From NCBI GenBank assembly GCA_964606765.1, contig CAZSIR010000001.1, positions 5,988-69,987 of the forward strand: a stretch of DNA of 64,000 nt, in the 5' to 3' direction. Source of the DNA: an uncultured Bordetella sp. Lineage in GTDB: Bacteria; Pseudomonadota; Gammaproteobacteria; Burkholderiales; SG8-41. A program made the position numbers and the translations under genes. Shown here in pieces: positions 3,287-27,232 of the stretch (the first letter of the stretch is position 1; each line of letters starts with the position of its first letter). The notes beneath the pieces were generated by a model. It did no database searches and was not told the DNA's origin. It saw only the letters and a program-made list of their open reading frames with translations.

Positions 3287-4000
3287 ATGGACAAGCTGCA
3301 GGTCAGGATCTGGCGCGGTACCGAGCAGGGCGACTTCCAGGATTTCGAAGTGCCGCGGCAGGAAAGCCAGACGGTGCTCGATGTGGTGACCTATGTGCAG
3401 CGCAAATGCGATCCGACGCTGGCCTACCGTTTTGCCTGCCGCGTCGGCGTCTGCGGTTCCTGTGCGATGTCGGTCAACGGGCAGTCGCGCTGGACCTGCC
3501 GCACGCATGTGTCCAAGGTCGCTGCCGACAACAAACTTGAAATAGCCCCTTTGCGCAACCTGCCGGTGGTCAAGGACCTGGTCACCGACATGCGCGAATT
3601 TTTCGACAAGTGGGCGCGCGCCCGCGGCCGTTTCAGCGGCGCCGCTACACGCAAGGACGCGTTTGCCAGCGTCAAGCCGGAGTCGAAGGAACGCAAGCGC
3701 GTCGATGCCGGCATCGAGTGCATCGGCTGCGGGGTGTGTTACAGCGCCTGTGACGTCGTGAGCTGGAACAAGGATTACCTCGGGCCCGCCGCACTGAACC
3801 GCGCCTGGACCCTGATCAACGATGTGCGCGATACCGCGCGCGCCGAGCGCCTGGCCGCGGTGGCGGGGGATGCCGGCTGCCATGCCTGCCATACCCATCT
3901 CAGCTGCACCGAACGCTGCCCCAAAGGGCTGTCGCCGACGGCGGGGATTGCCGGCCTGAAGCGCGCGGTGCTCGCCGCGACGCTCAGCGGCGATATATAA
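3287..4000 (+). CDS. Succinate dehydrogenase/fumarate reductase-type iron-sulfur subunit
   Basis: Three Cys clusters are present: CRVGVCGSCAMSVNG...C (2Fe-2S), CIGCGVCYSAC, and CHACHTHLSCTERCP. At 237 aa the size is typical of SdhB/FrdB. Confidence 0.85.
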   Translation: MDKLQVRIWRGTEQGDFQDFEVPRQESQTVLDVVTYVQRKCDPTLAYRFACRVGVCGSCAMSVNGQSRWTCRTHVSKVAADNKLEIAPLRNLPVVKDLVTDMREFFDKWARARGRFSGAATRKDAFASVKPESKERKRVDAGIECIGCGVCYSACDVVSWNKDYLGPAALNRAWTLINDVRDTARAERLAAVAGDAGCHACHTHLSCTERCPKGLSPTAGIAGLKRAVLAATLSGDI

Positions 4001-9119: not shown

Positions 9120-10835
9120 ATGCAAACCATTAAAACCGACATCCTGATCCTCGGCTCCGGCGGCGCCGGCCTGTTCGCCGCGCTGCATGCGCACCAGCAT
9201 GATCCCGCATTGAAAATCACGGTCGCCGTGAAGGGGCTGCTGGGCAAAAGCGGCTGCACACGCATGGTGCAGGGCGGCTACAACGTGGCACTTGCGGAAG
9301 GCGACTCGGTGGAGCGCCATTTCATGGACACCATCGAGGGCGGCAAATGGCTGCCTGACCAGGATCTGGCGTGGACGCTGGTGGAAACCGCCGTCGAGCG
9401 CATACACGAACTGGAGAACGAACTCGGCTGCTTTTTCGACCGTAATCCCGACGGCAGCATCCACCAGAAAGCATTCGCCGGGCAGACCTTTGACCGTACC
9501 GTGCACAAAGGCGACCTGACCGGCATTGAAATCATCAATCGCCTGGCTGAGCAGGTCTGGGCGCGCGGCATTGACCGCCTCGAAGAACATCGCGCGGTCG
9601 AATTCATCAAGAACAAGGCCGGTGATGCGATTTCCGGCGTGCTGATGATCGACATGCGCAGCGGCGATTTCGTGTTCGTGCAGGCGCAGGCGGTGCTGCT
9701 GGCGACCGGCGGCGGGCCCACCATGTACAAGTTCCACACGCCTTCCGGCGACAAGAGCTGTGACGGCATGGCGATGGCGCTGCGCAGCGGCCTCATGTTG
9801 CGCGACATGGAAATGGTGCAGTTTCACCCGACAGGCCTGATTGCAGGTTCGGATACGCGCATCACCGGCACCATCATCGAGGAGGGTCTGCGCGGCGCCG
9901 GCGGCTATCTGCTGAACGGTGCGGAAGAGCGCTTCATGCACAACTATGACAAGCGCAATGAGCGCGCGACACGGGACATCGTCAGCCGCGGCATGTATGA
10001 AGAGATGCGTGCGGGGCGCGTCAACAAACACGGCGGGCTGTACATCACCATGGGCCACCTCGATCCGGTGATGGTGCGCAGGGAATTCAAGGGCATGGTC
10101 GAACGCTGCGCCGATTGCGGCTTTGACCTGGTCGGCGGGCTGGTGGACGTGGTGCCCACCGCCCATTACATGATGGGCGGCGTGGCGTTCAAGACCGACT
10201 GCACGACCGACCTGCCGGGACTGTTTGTCGCCGGCGAGGATTCCGGCGGTGTGCATGGCGCCAACCGGCTTGGCGGCAACGGCGTGGCCAATTCCACGGT
10301 GTTCGGCGGCATTGCCGGTGATGTGATGCCGGGCTGGGTCAAGGCGAACGGCGAGTTCCGCGCGCCGGACCAGGAGGCAATTGCCGCCGCGGTGGCGCGC
10401 TGCCGCGCGCCGCTGACGCGCAAGGGCGGTGACATCAATGCGATCCGTGAACAACTCTACAGCGTGATGTGGGACGACGTCGGCATCATCCGCGATGCCG
10501 CTTCGCTCACGCGCGCGGCAGGCCTGCTGGATGAACTCGATGCCCGGCTTGATGCCGCCGGTGTGGACGGTTCAACGCTGGCCTTCAACCTGACCTGGCA
10601 TGACTGGATGAACCTGAAAAACCTTGTGCTGGTGTCGCAATCGATCCGTTTTGCCGCGATGGCGCGCGAGGATTCACGCGGCGCGCATTACCGCGAGGAT
10701 CATCCGGTGGTGCGCGATCTCGAAAATTCGCGTTTCACCTGCGTCAGCTGGCGCGACGGCCGTTTTGCCAGCGAGACCCGGCCCGTGCAGTTCACCCGCG
10801 TGAAACCCGGGCAATCGCTGCTCGTCACGGCCTGA
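9120..10835 (+). CDS. FAD-dependent SDH/FRD/L-aspartate-oxidase family flavoprotein
   Basis: DILILGSGGAGLFAA dinucleotide fold, MVQFHPTG, AHYMMGG, GEDSGGVHGANRLGGNG. The position equivalent to the SdhA/FrdA flavinylated His (RSHT) reads SGCT, with Cys46 at 9255..9257. Confidence 0.85.
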   Translation: MQTIKTDILILGSGGAGLFAALHAHQHDPALKITVAVKGLLGKSGCTRMVQGGYNVALAEGDSVERHFMDTIEGGKWLPDQDLAWTLVETAVERIHELENELGCFFDRNPDGSIHQKAFAGQTFDRTVHKGDLTGIEIINRLAEQVWARGIDRLEEHRAVEFIKNKAGDAISGVLMIDMRSGDFVFVQAQAVLLATGGGPTMYKFHTPSGDKSCDGMAMALRSGLMLRDMEMVQFHPTGLIAGSDTRITGTIIEEGLRGAGGYLLNGAEERFMHNYDKRNERATRDIVSRGMYEEMRAGRVNKHGGLYITMGHLDPVMVRREFKGMVERCADCGFDLVGGLVDVVPTAHYMMGGVAFKTDCTTDLPGLFVAGEDSGGVHGANRLGGNGVANSTVFGGIAGDVMPGWVKANGEFRAPDQEAIAAAVARCRAPLTRKGGDINAIREQLYSVMWDDVGIIRDAASLTRAAGLLDELDARLDAAGVDGSTLAFNLTWHDWMNLKNLVLVSQSIRFAAMAREDSRGAHYREDHPVVRDLENSRFTCVSWRDGRFASETRPVQFTRVKPGQSLLVTA

Positions 10836-21442: not shown

Positions 21443-22669
21443 ATGAACAAGCCGGAAAAACTGTCCCATCCACCGCTGCCGGTCGTCGAAGCGCAGGCCC
21501 TGGGCTTTGCGCCGGATCGCCTGCTGCGCATCGCCGCCGCGCTGAATGCGGAAATCGCGCGCAACGCGCTGCCCGGCGCAGTGCTGATGATTGCCCGGCG
21601 CGGCAGGCTGGCCTATTGCGAAACCTTCGGCCACCTTGATCCGGCTGCGCGAACGGCAATGCCTGCCGATGCGCTGTTCAGCATTGCCTCGATGACCAAG
21701 CCGCTGGTGACGGTCGGCGCGCTGATGCTGGCGGAGGCGGGACGGATCGGCATCAATGAACCCGTCGGAAAATATCTGCCGCAGCTCGCGCAGATGCAGG
21801 TCAATCCACCGCAATGCGACGGCAGCGCCGGTTCGCCGACGGTGCCTGTGAACCGGCAGATGACCGTTGAAGACCTGATGCGCCACACCGCAGGCCTGAG
21901 TTACGGCCGAGGCGACAAGGCCTTGTACGCGCGATACCCGTTTTCTTCGGATGTGGCGTCGACAAAATGGACGGGCGGGGAGTTTCTCGGCCAGCTCGCG
22001 GCGCTGCCGCTGCATTACCAGCCGGGTTCGATGTGGGAGTACAGCCTGGGCCTTGACGTGCTGGGCCTGCTGATCGAAGCCGTCACCGACATGCCGCTGG
22101 CGCAGTACCTGGACGAAAATCTGTTCCAGCCGCTGCGGATGCGCGATACCGCATTCACGGTGCCTAAGGGTGAGGTGGCGCGTTACGCCAGGGCGCTGCC
22201 GCTGGATCCGCTGACACAACAGCCGCAGACTTTGCGCGACGGCACCACGCCGCATAAATTCGATTGCGGCGGCGGCTGCGCGGTGTCGACCGCGGCTGAT
22301 TACCTGCGTTTTGCGCAGATGCTGCTGAACGGCGGCGAGCTTGATGGCGTGCGCGTGCTGTCGCGCAAGACCGTCGAGTACATGACCACCGACCATCTCG
22401 GGCCCGAAGTCGATCTGTCCAGGCTGAATGACTATCCCAACATCCGCGGTTATGGTTTCGGCCTGGGTGTTGCGGTACGGCGCAGTGCGGGCCGCGGCGG
22501 CATGCCCAGTTCCGCCGGCGAATTCCACTGGGCGGGTTCAACCGGCACTTATTTCTGGGTCGATCCGGCCGAGGCGCTGGTGACCGTGTTCATGGCCCAT
22601 GCCCCGGGCGCCATCCGTTATTACCATCGCCAGTTGCTGCACGCGCTGGTGCTCCAGGCCCTGGACTAG
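21443..22669 (+). CDS. Serine hydrolase, beta-lactamase/esterase (class C-like) family
   Basis: S-x-x-K motif in FSIASMTKPLV; YS.G...LG and W.GS.GT.FW C-terminal patterns. Confidence 0.85.
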   Translation: MNKPEKLSHPPLPVVEAQALGFAPDRLLRIAAALNAEIARNALPGAVLMIARRGRLAYCETFGHLDPAARTAMPADALFSIASMTKPLVTVGALMLAEAGRIGINEPVGKYLPQLAQMQVNPPQCDGSAGSPTVPVNRQMTVEDLMRHTAGLSYGRGDKALYARYPFSSDVASTKWTGGEFLGQLAALPLHYQPGSMWEYSLGLDVLGLLIEAVTDMPLAQYLDENLFQPLRMRDTAFTVPKGEVARYARALPLDPLTQQPQTLRDGTTPHKFDCGGGCAVSTAADYLRFAQMLLNGGELDGVRVLSRKTVEYMTTDHLGPEVDLSRLNDYPNIRGYGFGLGVAVRRSAGRGGMPSSAGEFHWAGSTGTYFWVDPAEALVTVFMAHAPGAIRYYHRQLLHALVLQALD

Positions 22670-23909: not shown

Positions 23910-24050
23910 GGTCCTCCCCCGTATTTGTCCGTCCTGATGACTGCGGCATGATGCGCCGGGAAATCCGCGCATTCAAGTGCGCGAGTCGTGGCGCCCAACA
24001 ACGGATGTCCTCGGTGTAACATGCGGGCACACCCGCAACACCGAGCACCC

Positions 24051-24479
24051 ATGACTGCCGATATCCAGCCCGCGCCTGCGCAATGGCGTTCCACAGTGCC
24101 GCTGTACATCCACCTCGGTTTCGAGCTTGATGCGCTGGGTGACGGACACGCCCAGGTCAGCCTGCGTTTTCAGCCGCATCTCGGCAATTCGCGCGGTGAT
24201 GTGCATGGCGGCACGGTGGCGGCGATCATTGATGCCGCGATGTCGCAGGCCGTGCGTTCGCTGGTGGACATGGAAATGGGCGTGGCAACCATGACCATGA
24301 ATCTCAGTTACCTTGCGCCGGCCCGGGGCCGTGTCGTCTGCAAGGGCGTGGTCATCAAACGCGGGCGCAGTATCATGTTCACCGAGGCTGAAGTGTTCGG
24401 CGAGGACGGCGTGCTCGCCTGCAGGGCCAGTGCCAGTTACCGTGTGCTGCCGAAAACGGTTTATCAGCAAAAGCCGTGA
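24051..24479 (+). CDS. PaaI family (hotdog-fold) thioesterase
   Basis: N.RGDVHGGTVAAIIDAAMS and the length of about 140 aa are typical of PaaI/YbgC-type thioesterases. Confidence 0.8.
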   Translation: MTADIQPAPAQWRSTVPLYIHLGFELDALGDGHAQVSLRFQPHLGNSRGDVHGGTVAAIIDAAMSQAVRSLVDMEMGVATMTMNLSYLAPARGRVVCKGVVIKRGRSIMFTEAEVFGEDGVLACRASASYRVLPKTVYQQKP

Positions 24480-24540
24480 CGGAGGCAAAACAGTTTTTGA
24501 CCAAACGCGGCGACATGCCGCGACAACCGGAGGAGGCGCC

Positions 24541-25107
24541 ATGAACAAGCCGCTGGGCAATGAAGATCTTTCCGAGAAACCGGGTGAACGCATCATCGAC
24601 CGGCCCGAGCTGCCGGCCGGCGGCGTGACCAACGAGAACGATGTGCACACCGAGGTGATTGCCGGTGAAATGCATCTTAAGCGCGGCATCATGGGCAAAT
24701 TCGAGGTATTCACCGACGAGGCGCCGCGCCTCGGCGGCACCGACAAATTTCCTTCGCCAATGACCTATCTGGCGATGGCGGTGGGCTTTTGACTGCTGAC
24801 CCAGGTTGCGCGGTACGCGCACATGATGAAAATGAAAGTCAGCGGCGCCAGCTGCCGCGTGCTGTTCCGCAAGCACCTTGGCGGCTCGGTGCTCAAGGGC
24901 ACGGTGTTCAACAAGTGGGAAAGCGTGGACACTTTTCTCAAGCTTGACAGCGACGAGCCCGAAGACAAACTGGCCCACCTGATCAAAAACGCCAAGGCGG
25001 GCTGTTTTGCCGAAGGCCTGATTGTCCAGCCGGTGCCGCTGAACAGCCATGTCGAGGTCAACGGCCGGCCGTTTCACATCGAGGGTGTGACGGCGGGTCG
25101 ACAATAA
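24541..25107 (+). CDS. OsmC/Ohr family peroxiredoxin-like protein interrupted by a single in-frame TGA (24790..24792) at the conserved Cys position; candidate selenoprotein or recent pseudogene
   Basis: ORFs 24541..24792 and 24823..25107 share one frame. The joined product reads ...GGTDKFPSPMTYLAMAVGF[TGA]LLTQVA...NAKAGCFAEG.... RBS aggagg lies before 24541 and a hairpin follows the TGA. Confidence 0.6.
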
Positions 25108-25145
25108 ATCCGCGACAGCGGATGGTTCATTTCACAGGAGTTTGC

Positions 25146-26138
25146 ATGCAGCACGCAAGGCATCACGGTTTCATCGCCGCCGCGGCATGGCTGGCCGCCA
25201 CGCTTCCCGCATTTGCCGCCCAGCCCGTTGCGGATCCCGCTCCCGGTTTCCCCAGCCGTCCCCTGCGCCTGATCGTGCCGTTCACGCCCAGCGGCCCGAA
25301 TGACCAGCTGGCGCGCATGGTCGGTGCGAAGCTGACGGAATCCTGGGGGCAGCAGGTGGTTGTCGACAACCGCCCCGGCGCCGGCACCGTCATCGGCACC
25401 GAACTCGCGGTGCGCTCACCGGCAGATGGACACACGCTGCTGATGATTTCACTCAGCACGGCGGTGAATCCTGTGCTGCAGAAAAAACTGCCGTTCGACA
25501 CGGAAAAGGATCTGGTGCCGCTGATCAACCTGGCGCTGTCGCCGAACGTGCTGGTGGTGCATCCGGGCGTGGCGGCGAGCAATGTCGCCGGCTTGCTGGC
25601 GCTGGCAAAGGCCAAGCCCGGGGACATCATCTATGCCTCCGGCGGTGCGGGCTCGACCACCCATCTGGCGGGCGAACTGCTGGCCAGCATGGGCGGCGTG
25701 AAGATGACCCATGTGCCGTACAAGGGCGCAAGTCCGGCAACCATTGACCTGCTTGGCGGGCGGGTTTCCTGCATGTTCGGCACCATTCTGCCGACCCTGC
25801 CGCACATCAAGTCCGGCAAGCTGCGCGCCATCGGCACCAGTTCGCTGCAACGCTCCCCCGTGTTGCCGGATGTGCCGGCGATTGCCGAAACCCTCAAGGG
25901 ATTTGAAGCGGTATCGTTCTACGGCGTTGCGGTGCCCGCGGGTGTGCCCAGGCCGGTGATGAACAAACTCAATTTCGAAATGGCACGCATCATTACGGCG
26001 GCTGATACCCGGGAGCAGCTGCGCCAGCAGGGCGCCGAAGCCGTGGGCAATTCGCAGGCGGAATTCACTGCATTTTTCCGCAGGCAGATGAGCAAGTGGG
26101 CGGGCGTCATCAAGGCCGCAGGCCTGCAGGCGCAATAG
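25146..26138 (+). CDS. Bug/TctC family substrate-binding protein
   Basis: ATG at 25146 follows aggag. FPSRPLRLIVPFTPSGPND, VDNRPGAGTVIGTE and HVPYKGASPA. Confidence 0.9.
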   Translation: MQHARHHGFIAAAAWLAATLPAFAAQPVADPAPGFPSRPLRLIVPFTPSGPNDQLARMVGAKLTESWGQQVVVDNRPGAGTVIGTELAVRSPADGHTLLMISLSTAVNPVLQKKLPFDTEKDLVPLINLALSPNVLVVHPGVAASNVAGLLALAKAKPGDIIYASGGAGSTTHLAGELLASMGGVKMTHVPYKGASPATIDLLGGRVSCMFGTILPTLPHIKSGKLRAIGTSSLQRSPVLPDVPAIAETLKGFEAVSFYGVAVPAGVPRPVMNKLNFEMARIITAADTREQLRQQGAEAVGNSQAEFTAFFRRQMSKWAGVIKAAGLQAQ

Positions 26139-26174: not shown

Positions 26175-26227
26175 CCCGCGAAGTTTGCAAGCAAAATACG
26201 GCTTCGCTTTACCGTTTGAGAGAGACC

Positions 26228-27232
26228 ATGATCCAGCCATTCAAAATGCGTATCCACGGTGCCGCACTCGCCTGCAGTGTGGTTCTGGCACTGTGTTTTG
26301 TTGCAAGCGCAGAGGCCGCAGAAGATGCCGCGAAGTATCCGTCCAAGGCGATCCGTTTCATCGTGCCGTTCCCGCCCGGCGGCGGCAATGACACCATCGC
26401 GCGCCTGGTCGGCCAGCAGATGGCATCAACGATGGGGCAGCAGATCATGGTGGATAACCGGCCCGGCGCGGCCGGCGCGCTGGGTGCGCAGATTGCGGCA
26501 ACGTCTCCGGCCGACGGCTACACCATTTTCCTCGCCGGCGTCGGCAGCCACGGACTGAATCCGAACCTGCGCAAGAAACTGCCGTACGACGCCGTCAAGG
26601 ATTTCGATGCGGTGAGCCTGATTGCCTCCGCACCGCTGCTGGTGGTGGTGCATCCGTCGCTGCCGGTGAAATCCGTGAAGGAACTGGTTGCTCTGGCCAA
26701 ATCCAAACCCGGCGCCATCAATTACGCATCCAATGGCACCGGCGGGTCCTCGCACATGGCGGTGGAACTCTTCGACATGATGAGCGGCACGAAAATGCTG
26801 CATGTGCCATACAAGGGACTGACCCCGGCGCTGACCGATCTGCTCTCGGGCGAAGTGCAGGTGATGTTTTCCAGCGCGGTGGCCATGCTGCCGCAGGTGA
26901 AGGCGGGGCGGCTGCGTGCGATAGCAATGACCGGCAGCAAACGTTCCGAAGCCATCCCGGATATTCCCACCGTGGCCGAAGCCGGCGTCAAAGGCTATGA
27001 AACCGGTTCCTGGTACGGCGTGGTTGCGCCGGCCGGCACGCCCAGGTACGCGATTGACAGGCTGAGCAGCGAAATCATCCGCATCACCAAATCACCGCAG
27101 GTCACCAACAAGCTGGTGGAGGAGGCGGTGATACCCGTGGGCAGCACGCCGGTCGAGTTCTCGGCCTATATCAAGTCGGAAATTGCGCGCTGGGGCAAGG
27201 TCATCAAGGCGGGACAGATCAAGATCGAGTGA
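26228..27232 (+). CDS. Bug/TctC family substrate-binding protein
   Basis: YPSKAIRFIVPFPPGGGND, VDNRPGAAGALGAQ and HVPYKGLTPA. The start is uncertain (26228, or 26246 at MRIHG). Confidence 0.9.
   Translation: MIQPFKMRIHGAALACSVVLALCFVASAEAAEDAAKYPSKAIRFIVPFPPGGGNDTIARLVGQQMASTMGQQIMVDNRPGAAGALGAQIAATSPADGYTIFLAGVGSHGLNPNLRKKLPYDAVKDFDAVSLIASAPLLVVVHPSLPVKSVKELVALAKSKPGAINYASNGTGGSSHMAVELFDMMSGTKMLHVPYKGLTPALTDLLSGEVQVMFSSAVAMLPQVKAGRLRAIAMTGSKRSEAIPDIPTVAEAGVKGYETGSWYGVVAPAGTPRYAIDRLSSEIIRITKSPQVTNKLVEEAVIPVGSTPVEFSAYIKSEIARWGKVIKAGQIKIE

Follow-up and report, generated by a model that had tools for sequence, protein, structure and literature searches.

Comparison of the gene at 24541..25107 (forward strand) with its relatives indicates that it is very probably a true selenoprotein gene, whose product belongs to the OsmC-related (seleno)protein family NF041052, with the UGA of codon 84 in the place of the catalytic cysteine. 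The gene lies in a 64,000-nucleotide stretch of DNA (64 kb), the whole of which was analyzed and is referred to here as the window. The original prediction had leaned towards a selenoprotein rather than a pseudogene, and this leaning is borne out: the TGA is fixed among relatives, the half of the gene downstream of it is under selection, and the hairpin that follows it is specific to the selenocysteine (Sec) forms. The features that define the reading frame are as follows.

24541..25107, forward strand: coding sequence of the putative OsmC-related selenoprotein, 188 codons including Sec84, with the stop codon TAA at 25105..25107
24529..24536, forward strand: Shine-Dalgarno-like element GGAGGAGG, read from the sequence, 4 nt upstream of the ATG at 24541
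24790..24792, forward strand: UGA, the putative Sec codon 84, aligned with the first (peroxidatic) OsmC-family Cys; motif U-L-L-T, that is, UxxT
25003..25005, forward strand: TGT codon of Cys155 in NAKAGCFAEG; this second family Cys is presumably the resolving one

Translation of the forward strand from the ATG at 24541 to the TAA at 25105..25107 reveals a single in-frame stop, the TGA at 24790..24792 (codon 84), with neither a frameshift nor any further internal stop; the residues around it read ...MAVGF[TGA]LLTQVARYAHMMK. The reading of this locus as a 188-codon read-through product with one TGA at codon 84, no frameshift and no second stop was thus confirmed on the sequence, as was the presence of an intact second family Cys, which is C155, encoded by TGT at 25003..25005 in NAKAGCFAEG. 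The start at ATG 24541 is backed by GGAGGAGG and by the N-termini of homologues, which begin MNKPLG, MADKPLG and MAKPLG. The window uses the standard genetic code, since TGA is the stop codon of 37 of its 54 confidently called genes. For annotation, the open reading frames 24541..24792 and 24823..25107 would become one selenoprotein coding sequence with a translation exception at 24790..24792.

A search for proteins related to the read-through sequence returned full-length, collinear homologues of the 188-codon product. The homologues are of three kinds: full-length Cys forms, which carry GFCLLTQ in the column at 52-58% identity; N-terminal fragments, which stop exactly at ...GF; and C-terminal fragments, which begin at MMKM ten codons later and are 71-75% identical. 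The fragments are split at the TGA because gene callers stop at this conserved codon. DNA fetched for six independent metagenome lineages likewise has TGA in this column, and the next 33 nt are almost identical. A genome scan limited to one genome per species gave 194 loci, none of them identical to the window; the best 80 (65-91% amino-acid identity) were examined, and nearly all of these are from uncultured Burkholderiales or Betaproteobacteria metagenome-assembled genomes (MAGs). The comparison of orthologues that the original prediction had called for was made on this set, and all 81 gene copies at the best 80 of the 194 loci, in 80 species-representative genomes, have TGA. Overall, TGA occupies this column at 92 loci and TGC is found solely in distant Cys forms; among the close relatives examined neither TGC nor TGT occurs in this column, and identity to the Cys forms does not exceed 58%. 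A metagenome scan for TGH followed by the intact hairpin found TGA in 121 of 121 among the matches listed, in 115 distinct contexts, and neither TGC nor TGT preceded an intact hairpin among the at least 121 metagenome matches listed.

The sequence beyond the TGA behaves as protein-coding DNA. Over codons +11 to +97 of 89 distinct Sec-form sequences the amino acids are kept while synonymous codons turn over, with an entropy of about 1 bit for each degenerate codon; Cys155 is conserved in 99% of the 89 Sec forms, encoded by TGC in 48 and by TGT in 40. This is the pattern of purifying selection acting on a translated protein. A single mutation turns TGC or TGT into TGA, and a lone in-frame stop in place of a Cys codon would also be expected of a pseudogene that has died in this genome alone; the window, too, contains no Sec machinery. 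Against this reading stand the selection on the downstream half, the fixation of TGA in 81 of 81 copies at the best 80 of the 194 loci and in 121 of 121 of the metagenome matches listed, the presence of multiple paralogues per genome, and the distance of the Cys forms (no more than 58% identity), with close relatives having neither TGC nor TGT. We consider the pseudogene reading vanishingly improbable and reject it, as TGA is present in every copy examined, and in MAGs with 2-3 paralogues each of these has both TGA and the hairpin.

Two or three paralogous Sec genes occur in several MAGs and on one metagenome contig, and every copy has the TGA and an intact hairpin. The paralogue loci are L058 (TGA at 3529 and at 10499), L060, L053/L062, L072/L087, L063/L096, L079/L084 and L167, where the copies are 774 nt apart. 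Three database proteins illustrate the misannotation of OsmC-related selenoproteins in public protein sets: in P0006 the Sec column is occupied by Trp (GFWLLTQ) and the tail is frameshifted, pointing to a gene call made under a code in which TGA is Trp, and P0004 and P0009 have GFSRLTQ and degraded sequence and look like assembly or frameshift errors.

We also considered that the TGA could be a genuine stop, giving a truncated peptide of 83 residues and perhaps a separate C-terminal half from the ATG at 24823, with the hairpin serving attenuation or restart. Gene callers annotate exactly these two pieces, and the ATG ATG at 24823..24828 is invariant. However, MMK (ATG ATG AAR) is just as invariant in the unsplit Cys forms, so the conservation of this motif reflects a constraint on the protein. 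The peptide LLTQVARYAH, which lies between the TGA and the ATG, is itself conserved as protein, the split would remove the catalytic residue from an otherwise intact two-Cys active site, and the hairpin copies the geometry of the fdhF selenocysteine insertion sequence (SECIS). A functional stop at this position is therefore very improbable, and the hairpin is considered below as a candidate SECIS of a selenoprotein gene.

The core of this element, in which bases are numbered from the U of the UGA as 1, is the following.

24802..24825, forward strand: predicted SECIS core hairpin, minimum free energy (MFE) -9.1 kcal/mol, beginning with GGUUGC 11 nt after the UGA

In the predicted fold, the core pairs are C13-G36, A14-U35, G16-C33 and U18-A32, with U17 bulged, followed by GCGCG/CGCGC. 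The apical loop consists of G24, U25 and A26 (24813..24815), which places G24 and U25 21-22 nt past the UGA. The coordinates that the original prediction gave for the apical hairpin, UGCGCG-GUA-CGCGCA at 24807..24821 and a loop lying 21-23 nt past the UGA, are exact. Across 84 distinct sequences, 99.3% of the cells of the core helix are paired. The codons that spell the hairpin in the Sec-form sequences are almost without variation.

codon +4, CAG: 86 of 89 sequences
codon +5, GTT: 85 of 87 sequences
codon +6, GCG: 89 of 89 sequences
codon +7, CGG: 89 of 89 sequences
codon +8, TAC: 88 of 89 sequences
codon +9, GCG: 89 of 89 sequences
codon +10, CAC: 88 of 88 sequences

Synonymous codon entropy in the 89 Sec-form sequences is close to 0 at codons +4 to +10, versus about 1 bit elsewhere, and the only degenerate codons with zero diversity among the 160 codons analyzed are GCG +6, CGG +7, GCG +9 and CAC +10. 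GTT and CGG are minority codons in the rest of the gene. Cys forms that encode the same QVARYA peptide spell the corresponding stretch in other ways (GTC GCC CGG TAC GCC, GTC GCA CGT TAT GCG and ATC GCC CGA TAC GCC), and these equivalents fold differently and weakly, at 0 to -6.3 kcal/mol versus -9.1 kcal/mol for the Sec forms. The proposal that the apical hairpin is a SECIS thus gains from its synonymous sites being frozen in the Sec forms and degraded in the Cys forms. As judged by these comparisons, the hairpin is under constraint as RNA, and solely where the codon is TGA; it makes a clean comparative case of a coding hairpin frozen at all six synonymous sites only behind TGA.

The apical stem displays no compensatory covariation across the 84 sequences, in which it is invariant. 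This is because each apical pair has at least one partner fixed by the amino acid; with that partner fixed, pairing freezes the free partner at the third position. The loop G falls on the third position of the Arg codon, which is CGG in 89 of 89 sequences, and its invariance points to a sequence-specific requirement like that for the SelB-contacting G of fdhF, in whose SECIS the loop G contacts SelB. Folding, a check that had been proposed along with the original prediction, gave the hairpin as the MFE structure of the 28-nt core, yet its energy lies within the range of shuffled sequences: z is +0.5 for the 76-nt segment and -0.76 for the 28-nt core, neither beyond chance. These scores are uninformative because the segment is short, GC-rich and coding, and since the energy is no better than that of the shuffles, the support for the hairpin comes from the comparison of related sequences and not from thermodynamics. 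A search of Rfam gave no match at gathering thresholds.

To place the hairpin among known elements we compared it with the SECIS of E. coli fdhF, using an fdhF sequence that matches fdhF in the listed genomes at 100% and is at least 99% identical in 5,413 of 5,420 matching records. The fdhF element reads UGA, 11 nt, GGUUGCA-GGUC-UGCACC; that of the window reads UGA, 11 nt (CUGCUGACCCA), GGUUGCGCG-GUA-CGCGCAC. In sequence and predicted fold both have the 11-nt spacer, GGUUGC...GCAC and one bulged U, and both have a G followed by a U in the apical loop. They differ in that the upper stem of the window hairpin is two G-C pairs longer (GCGCG/CGCGC versus GCA/UGC), its loop is GUA (GGUAC if the top pair opens) versus GGUC, and its lower helix is conserved only in part. 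The window hairpin therefore has the E. coli-type, fdhF-like SECIS layout and is a putative SelB element.

Below the core, a further helix can form between two arms.

24793..24800, forward strand: 5' arm of the optional lower stem, CUGCUGAC; all 8 of 8 pairs form in the window
24838..24845, forward strand: 3' arm of the optional lower stem, GUCAGCGG, the partner of 24793..24800

Over the 84 sequences, 80.4% of the lower-stem cells are paired and the stem is broken in many lineages. The one lower-stem pair made of two synonymous sites, pair 9-51, covaries (CG in 36, GC in 15, UA in 3 and unpaired in 28; Fisher p = 1e-4, phylogeny ignored). The pairing of GCUGAC (24795..24800) with GUCAGC (24838..24843), which the original prediction had included in the structure, does form in the window, but it is conserved only partly (80%) among relatives. 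We rejected the lower stem as an essential part of the SECIS on these grounds, although one of its pairs covaries; it is probably an accessory helix.

Taken together, these comparisons strongly support SECIS-directed, SelB-dependent insertion of Sec at UGA84. We propose that the UGA at 24790..24792 would be read as selenocysteine during translation, with the hairpin at 24802..24825 acting as a bacterial SECIS that brings SelB, loaded with GTP and Sec-tRNA(Sec), to the ribosome. The gene would imply a Sec-decoding host, and we infer both the actual insertion of Sec and the presence of selABCD in that host. The 64-kb window and about 1.7 Mb of flanking sequence from related loci contain no selA, selB, selD, tRNA-Sec or second selenoprotein. 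Searches of the window and these flanks by tblastn with E. coli SelD, SelA, SelB and FdhF gave only a generic GTPase-domain match, at L076; neither the window nor 60 related loci contained a tRNA-Sec, and no formate dehydrogenase was found in the window or the about 1.7 Mb of related flanks. A scan of the window for other TGA-interrupted genes found none, only adjacent genes that chance to share a frame.

The lack of Sec machinery from the window and the about 1.7 Mb of related flanks would also be expected if near-cognate suppression or local recoding put a standard amino acid (Cys, Trp or Gly) at the UGA instead of Sec; the W in the column of P0006, presumably the product of an alternative-code gene call, might be taken to favor the same reading. 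Several observations argue against it: 37 of 54 window genes end in TGA as an ordinary stop codon, the hairpin has the layout of a SelB-type SECIS with a conserved loop G, and the family is curated as a selenoprotein family (NF041052; PMC1088965). Decoding as a standard amino acid is accordingly highly unlikely, and Sec is the preferred residue at this position.

The assignment of the protein to its family is clear. The read-through product matches Pfam OsmC (PF02566) with 42.5 bits against a cutoff of 27.5 (E = 9e-11) and NCBIfam NF041052 (OsmC_like_Se, 'OsmC-related (seleno)protein') with 159.6 bits (cutoff 95), the match spanning model positions 3-144 of 144. Cys homologues fall in the same NF041052 model at 152-157 bits. 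The window protein matches neither TIGR03562 (OsmC) nor TIGR03561 (Ohr), and NF041052 was the only one of these models reported at E <= 0.01; E. coli OsmC scores 204 bits against TIGR03562 and does not match NF041052. As a proxy for the window protein we used a model of the Cys homologue P0001 (pLDDT 70.8), which retrieved only OsmC/Ohr structures, the best being 3cje (E = 6e-7).

The identity of the TGA column, which the original prediction had proposed to check by alignment with Cys-containing homologues, was settled by profile alignments: the TGA stands opposite the first Cys of 3cje, 2opl, 2onf and 1vla, and C155 is aligned with the second Cys of 3cje and 2onf. Alignment to E. coli OsmC by hhalign covered the second-Cys region only, at low probability, and put C155 opposite Cys125 in KAKAGC; the first-Cys column was for this reason taken from the closer solved OsmC-like proteins. 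The window protein shares with Cys-based OsmC and Ohr proteins (E. coli OsmC, Xylella and Pseudomonas Ohr) the OsmC fold and two redox residues in the same columns, the first at the N-terminus of a helix and the second in A-K-A-G-C. Unlike them, it belongs to a separate subfamily with a conserved N-terminal extension of about 50 residues and has Sec in place of the peroxidatic Cys.

An 'OsmC-like protein' (COG1765, UxxT) has been a predicted selenoprotein family since the 2005 Sargasso Sea study (PMC1088965, PMC9312934, PMC13188914), and the window protein shares with it both the UxxT motif (U-L-L-T) and membership of NF041052. The OsmC-like examples of that selenoproteome (Zhang, Fomenko and Gladyshev) are marine metagenome reads, three sequences in all (PMC1088965). 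The original prediction was right that OsmC-like Sec forms had come from metagenomic surveys alone (PMC1088965), but the family is more firmly catalogued than it implied, with a curated model, NF041052. Novelty is low because the family is known from the 2005 surveys and is curated in this way; the window gene is a sound, ordinary example of a catalogued family and does not change what is known. It differs from the published examples in its setting: these are marine, whereas the window gene belongs to a large clade of Burkholderiales-type MAGs from soil, freshwater and groundwater, in which the Sec form is apparently fixed. Sec and Cys forms both occur within the one OsmC-like selenoprotein family. 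The same logic, with Sec for a nucleophilic Cys and Cys orthologues in existence, is seen in Sec-peroxiredoxin, Sec-GPx and AhpD-like selenoproteins (PMC1088965), whose folds (thioredoxin or AhpD) are unrelated to the OsmC fold of the window protein. Our literature search found no experimental characterization of the OsmC-related selenoprotein subfamily and no hydroperoxide reductase assay for it. The family is nevertheless a tractable candidate for comparing Sec with Cys in OsmC-type peroxide chemistry.

On the model of OsmC and Ohr, attack of Sec84 on a hydroperoxide would yield a selenenic acid, which Cys155 would resolve to a selenenylsulfide; a thiol or dithiol donor would then reduce the latter. 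We infer both the peroxidase chemistry and the type of reductant from this analogy. Reversion to Cys was never seen in more than 200 sequences of the Burkholderiales-type clade, Sec is kept in 2-3 paralogues, and the SECIS is a near-exact structural copy of that of fdhF, which together might suggest that the Sec form is obligatory in this clade and serves a catalytic need for selenium that Cys cannot meet in the subfamily. This is a tentative idea, and one that we regard as rather doubtful. If it were true, the gene would provide a natural selenoprotein directly expressible in E. coli, in which the preference for Sec over Cys in a two-residue peroxidase could be tested.

The genes on either side of the selenoprotein gene in the window are listed below.

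21443-22669, forward strand: gene for a beta-lactamase-fold protein (serine hydrolase), upstream of the selenoprotein gene
23988..24479, forward strand: gene for a hotdog-fold thioesterase, upstream of the selenoprotein gene
25122..26138, forward strand: gene for a TctC/Bug-family periplasmic solute-binding protein, directly downstream of the selenoprotein gene
26216..27232, forward strand: second, tandem TctC/Bug-family gene, after the gene at 25122..26138

The serine hydrolase and thioesterase neighbors recur in about 8-12 related loci, which are the closest syntenic relatives of the window. A TctC gene lies directly downstream in many related Sec loci, in a loose association; this neighbor is consistent with a Burkholderiales origin and says nothing on function. 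No redox partner was seen among the conserved neighbors of the Sec loci. A small inverted repeat, ATCCGC-gaca-GCGGAT, is present in the short gap at the selenoprotein gene and the TctC/Bug genes. Some 55 nt upstream of one Sec-OsmC copy, at L058 3154-3225, there is a tRNA-Cys(GCA) gene, which is probably a coincidence.

The Cys forms have a different neighborhood. At L011 968-1968, L012-L014 and L017 745-1669 a GcvH gene (NF002270, 145.8 bits) overlaps the stop codon of the OsmC gene by 4 nt, with an ABC-transporter permease gene upstream in some of these loci, whereas GcvH is rare near the Sec-form loci, occurring within about 5 kb in only 6 of about 200. The Cys forms, unlike the Sec forms, are in this way translationally coupled to the GcvH lipoyl carrier. 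Ohr enzymes use lipoylated proteins as reductants, and in combination with the GcvH coupling this raises the possibility that the Sec and Cys forms differ in their electron donor.

Several of the MAGs with Sec-form loci bear unexpected taxonomic labels: 'Bordetella parapertussis' on L026, L053, L062, L066, L069, L074 and L094, 'Chitinophaga pinensis' on L072 and L087, 'Streptomycetaceae' on L078 and L091, and 'Pyrinomonadaceae' on L057. These labels look implausible for contigs with a Burkholderiales-type gene at 66-84% identity and probably reflect placeholder or mis-binned taxonomy.
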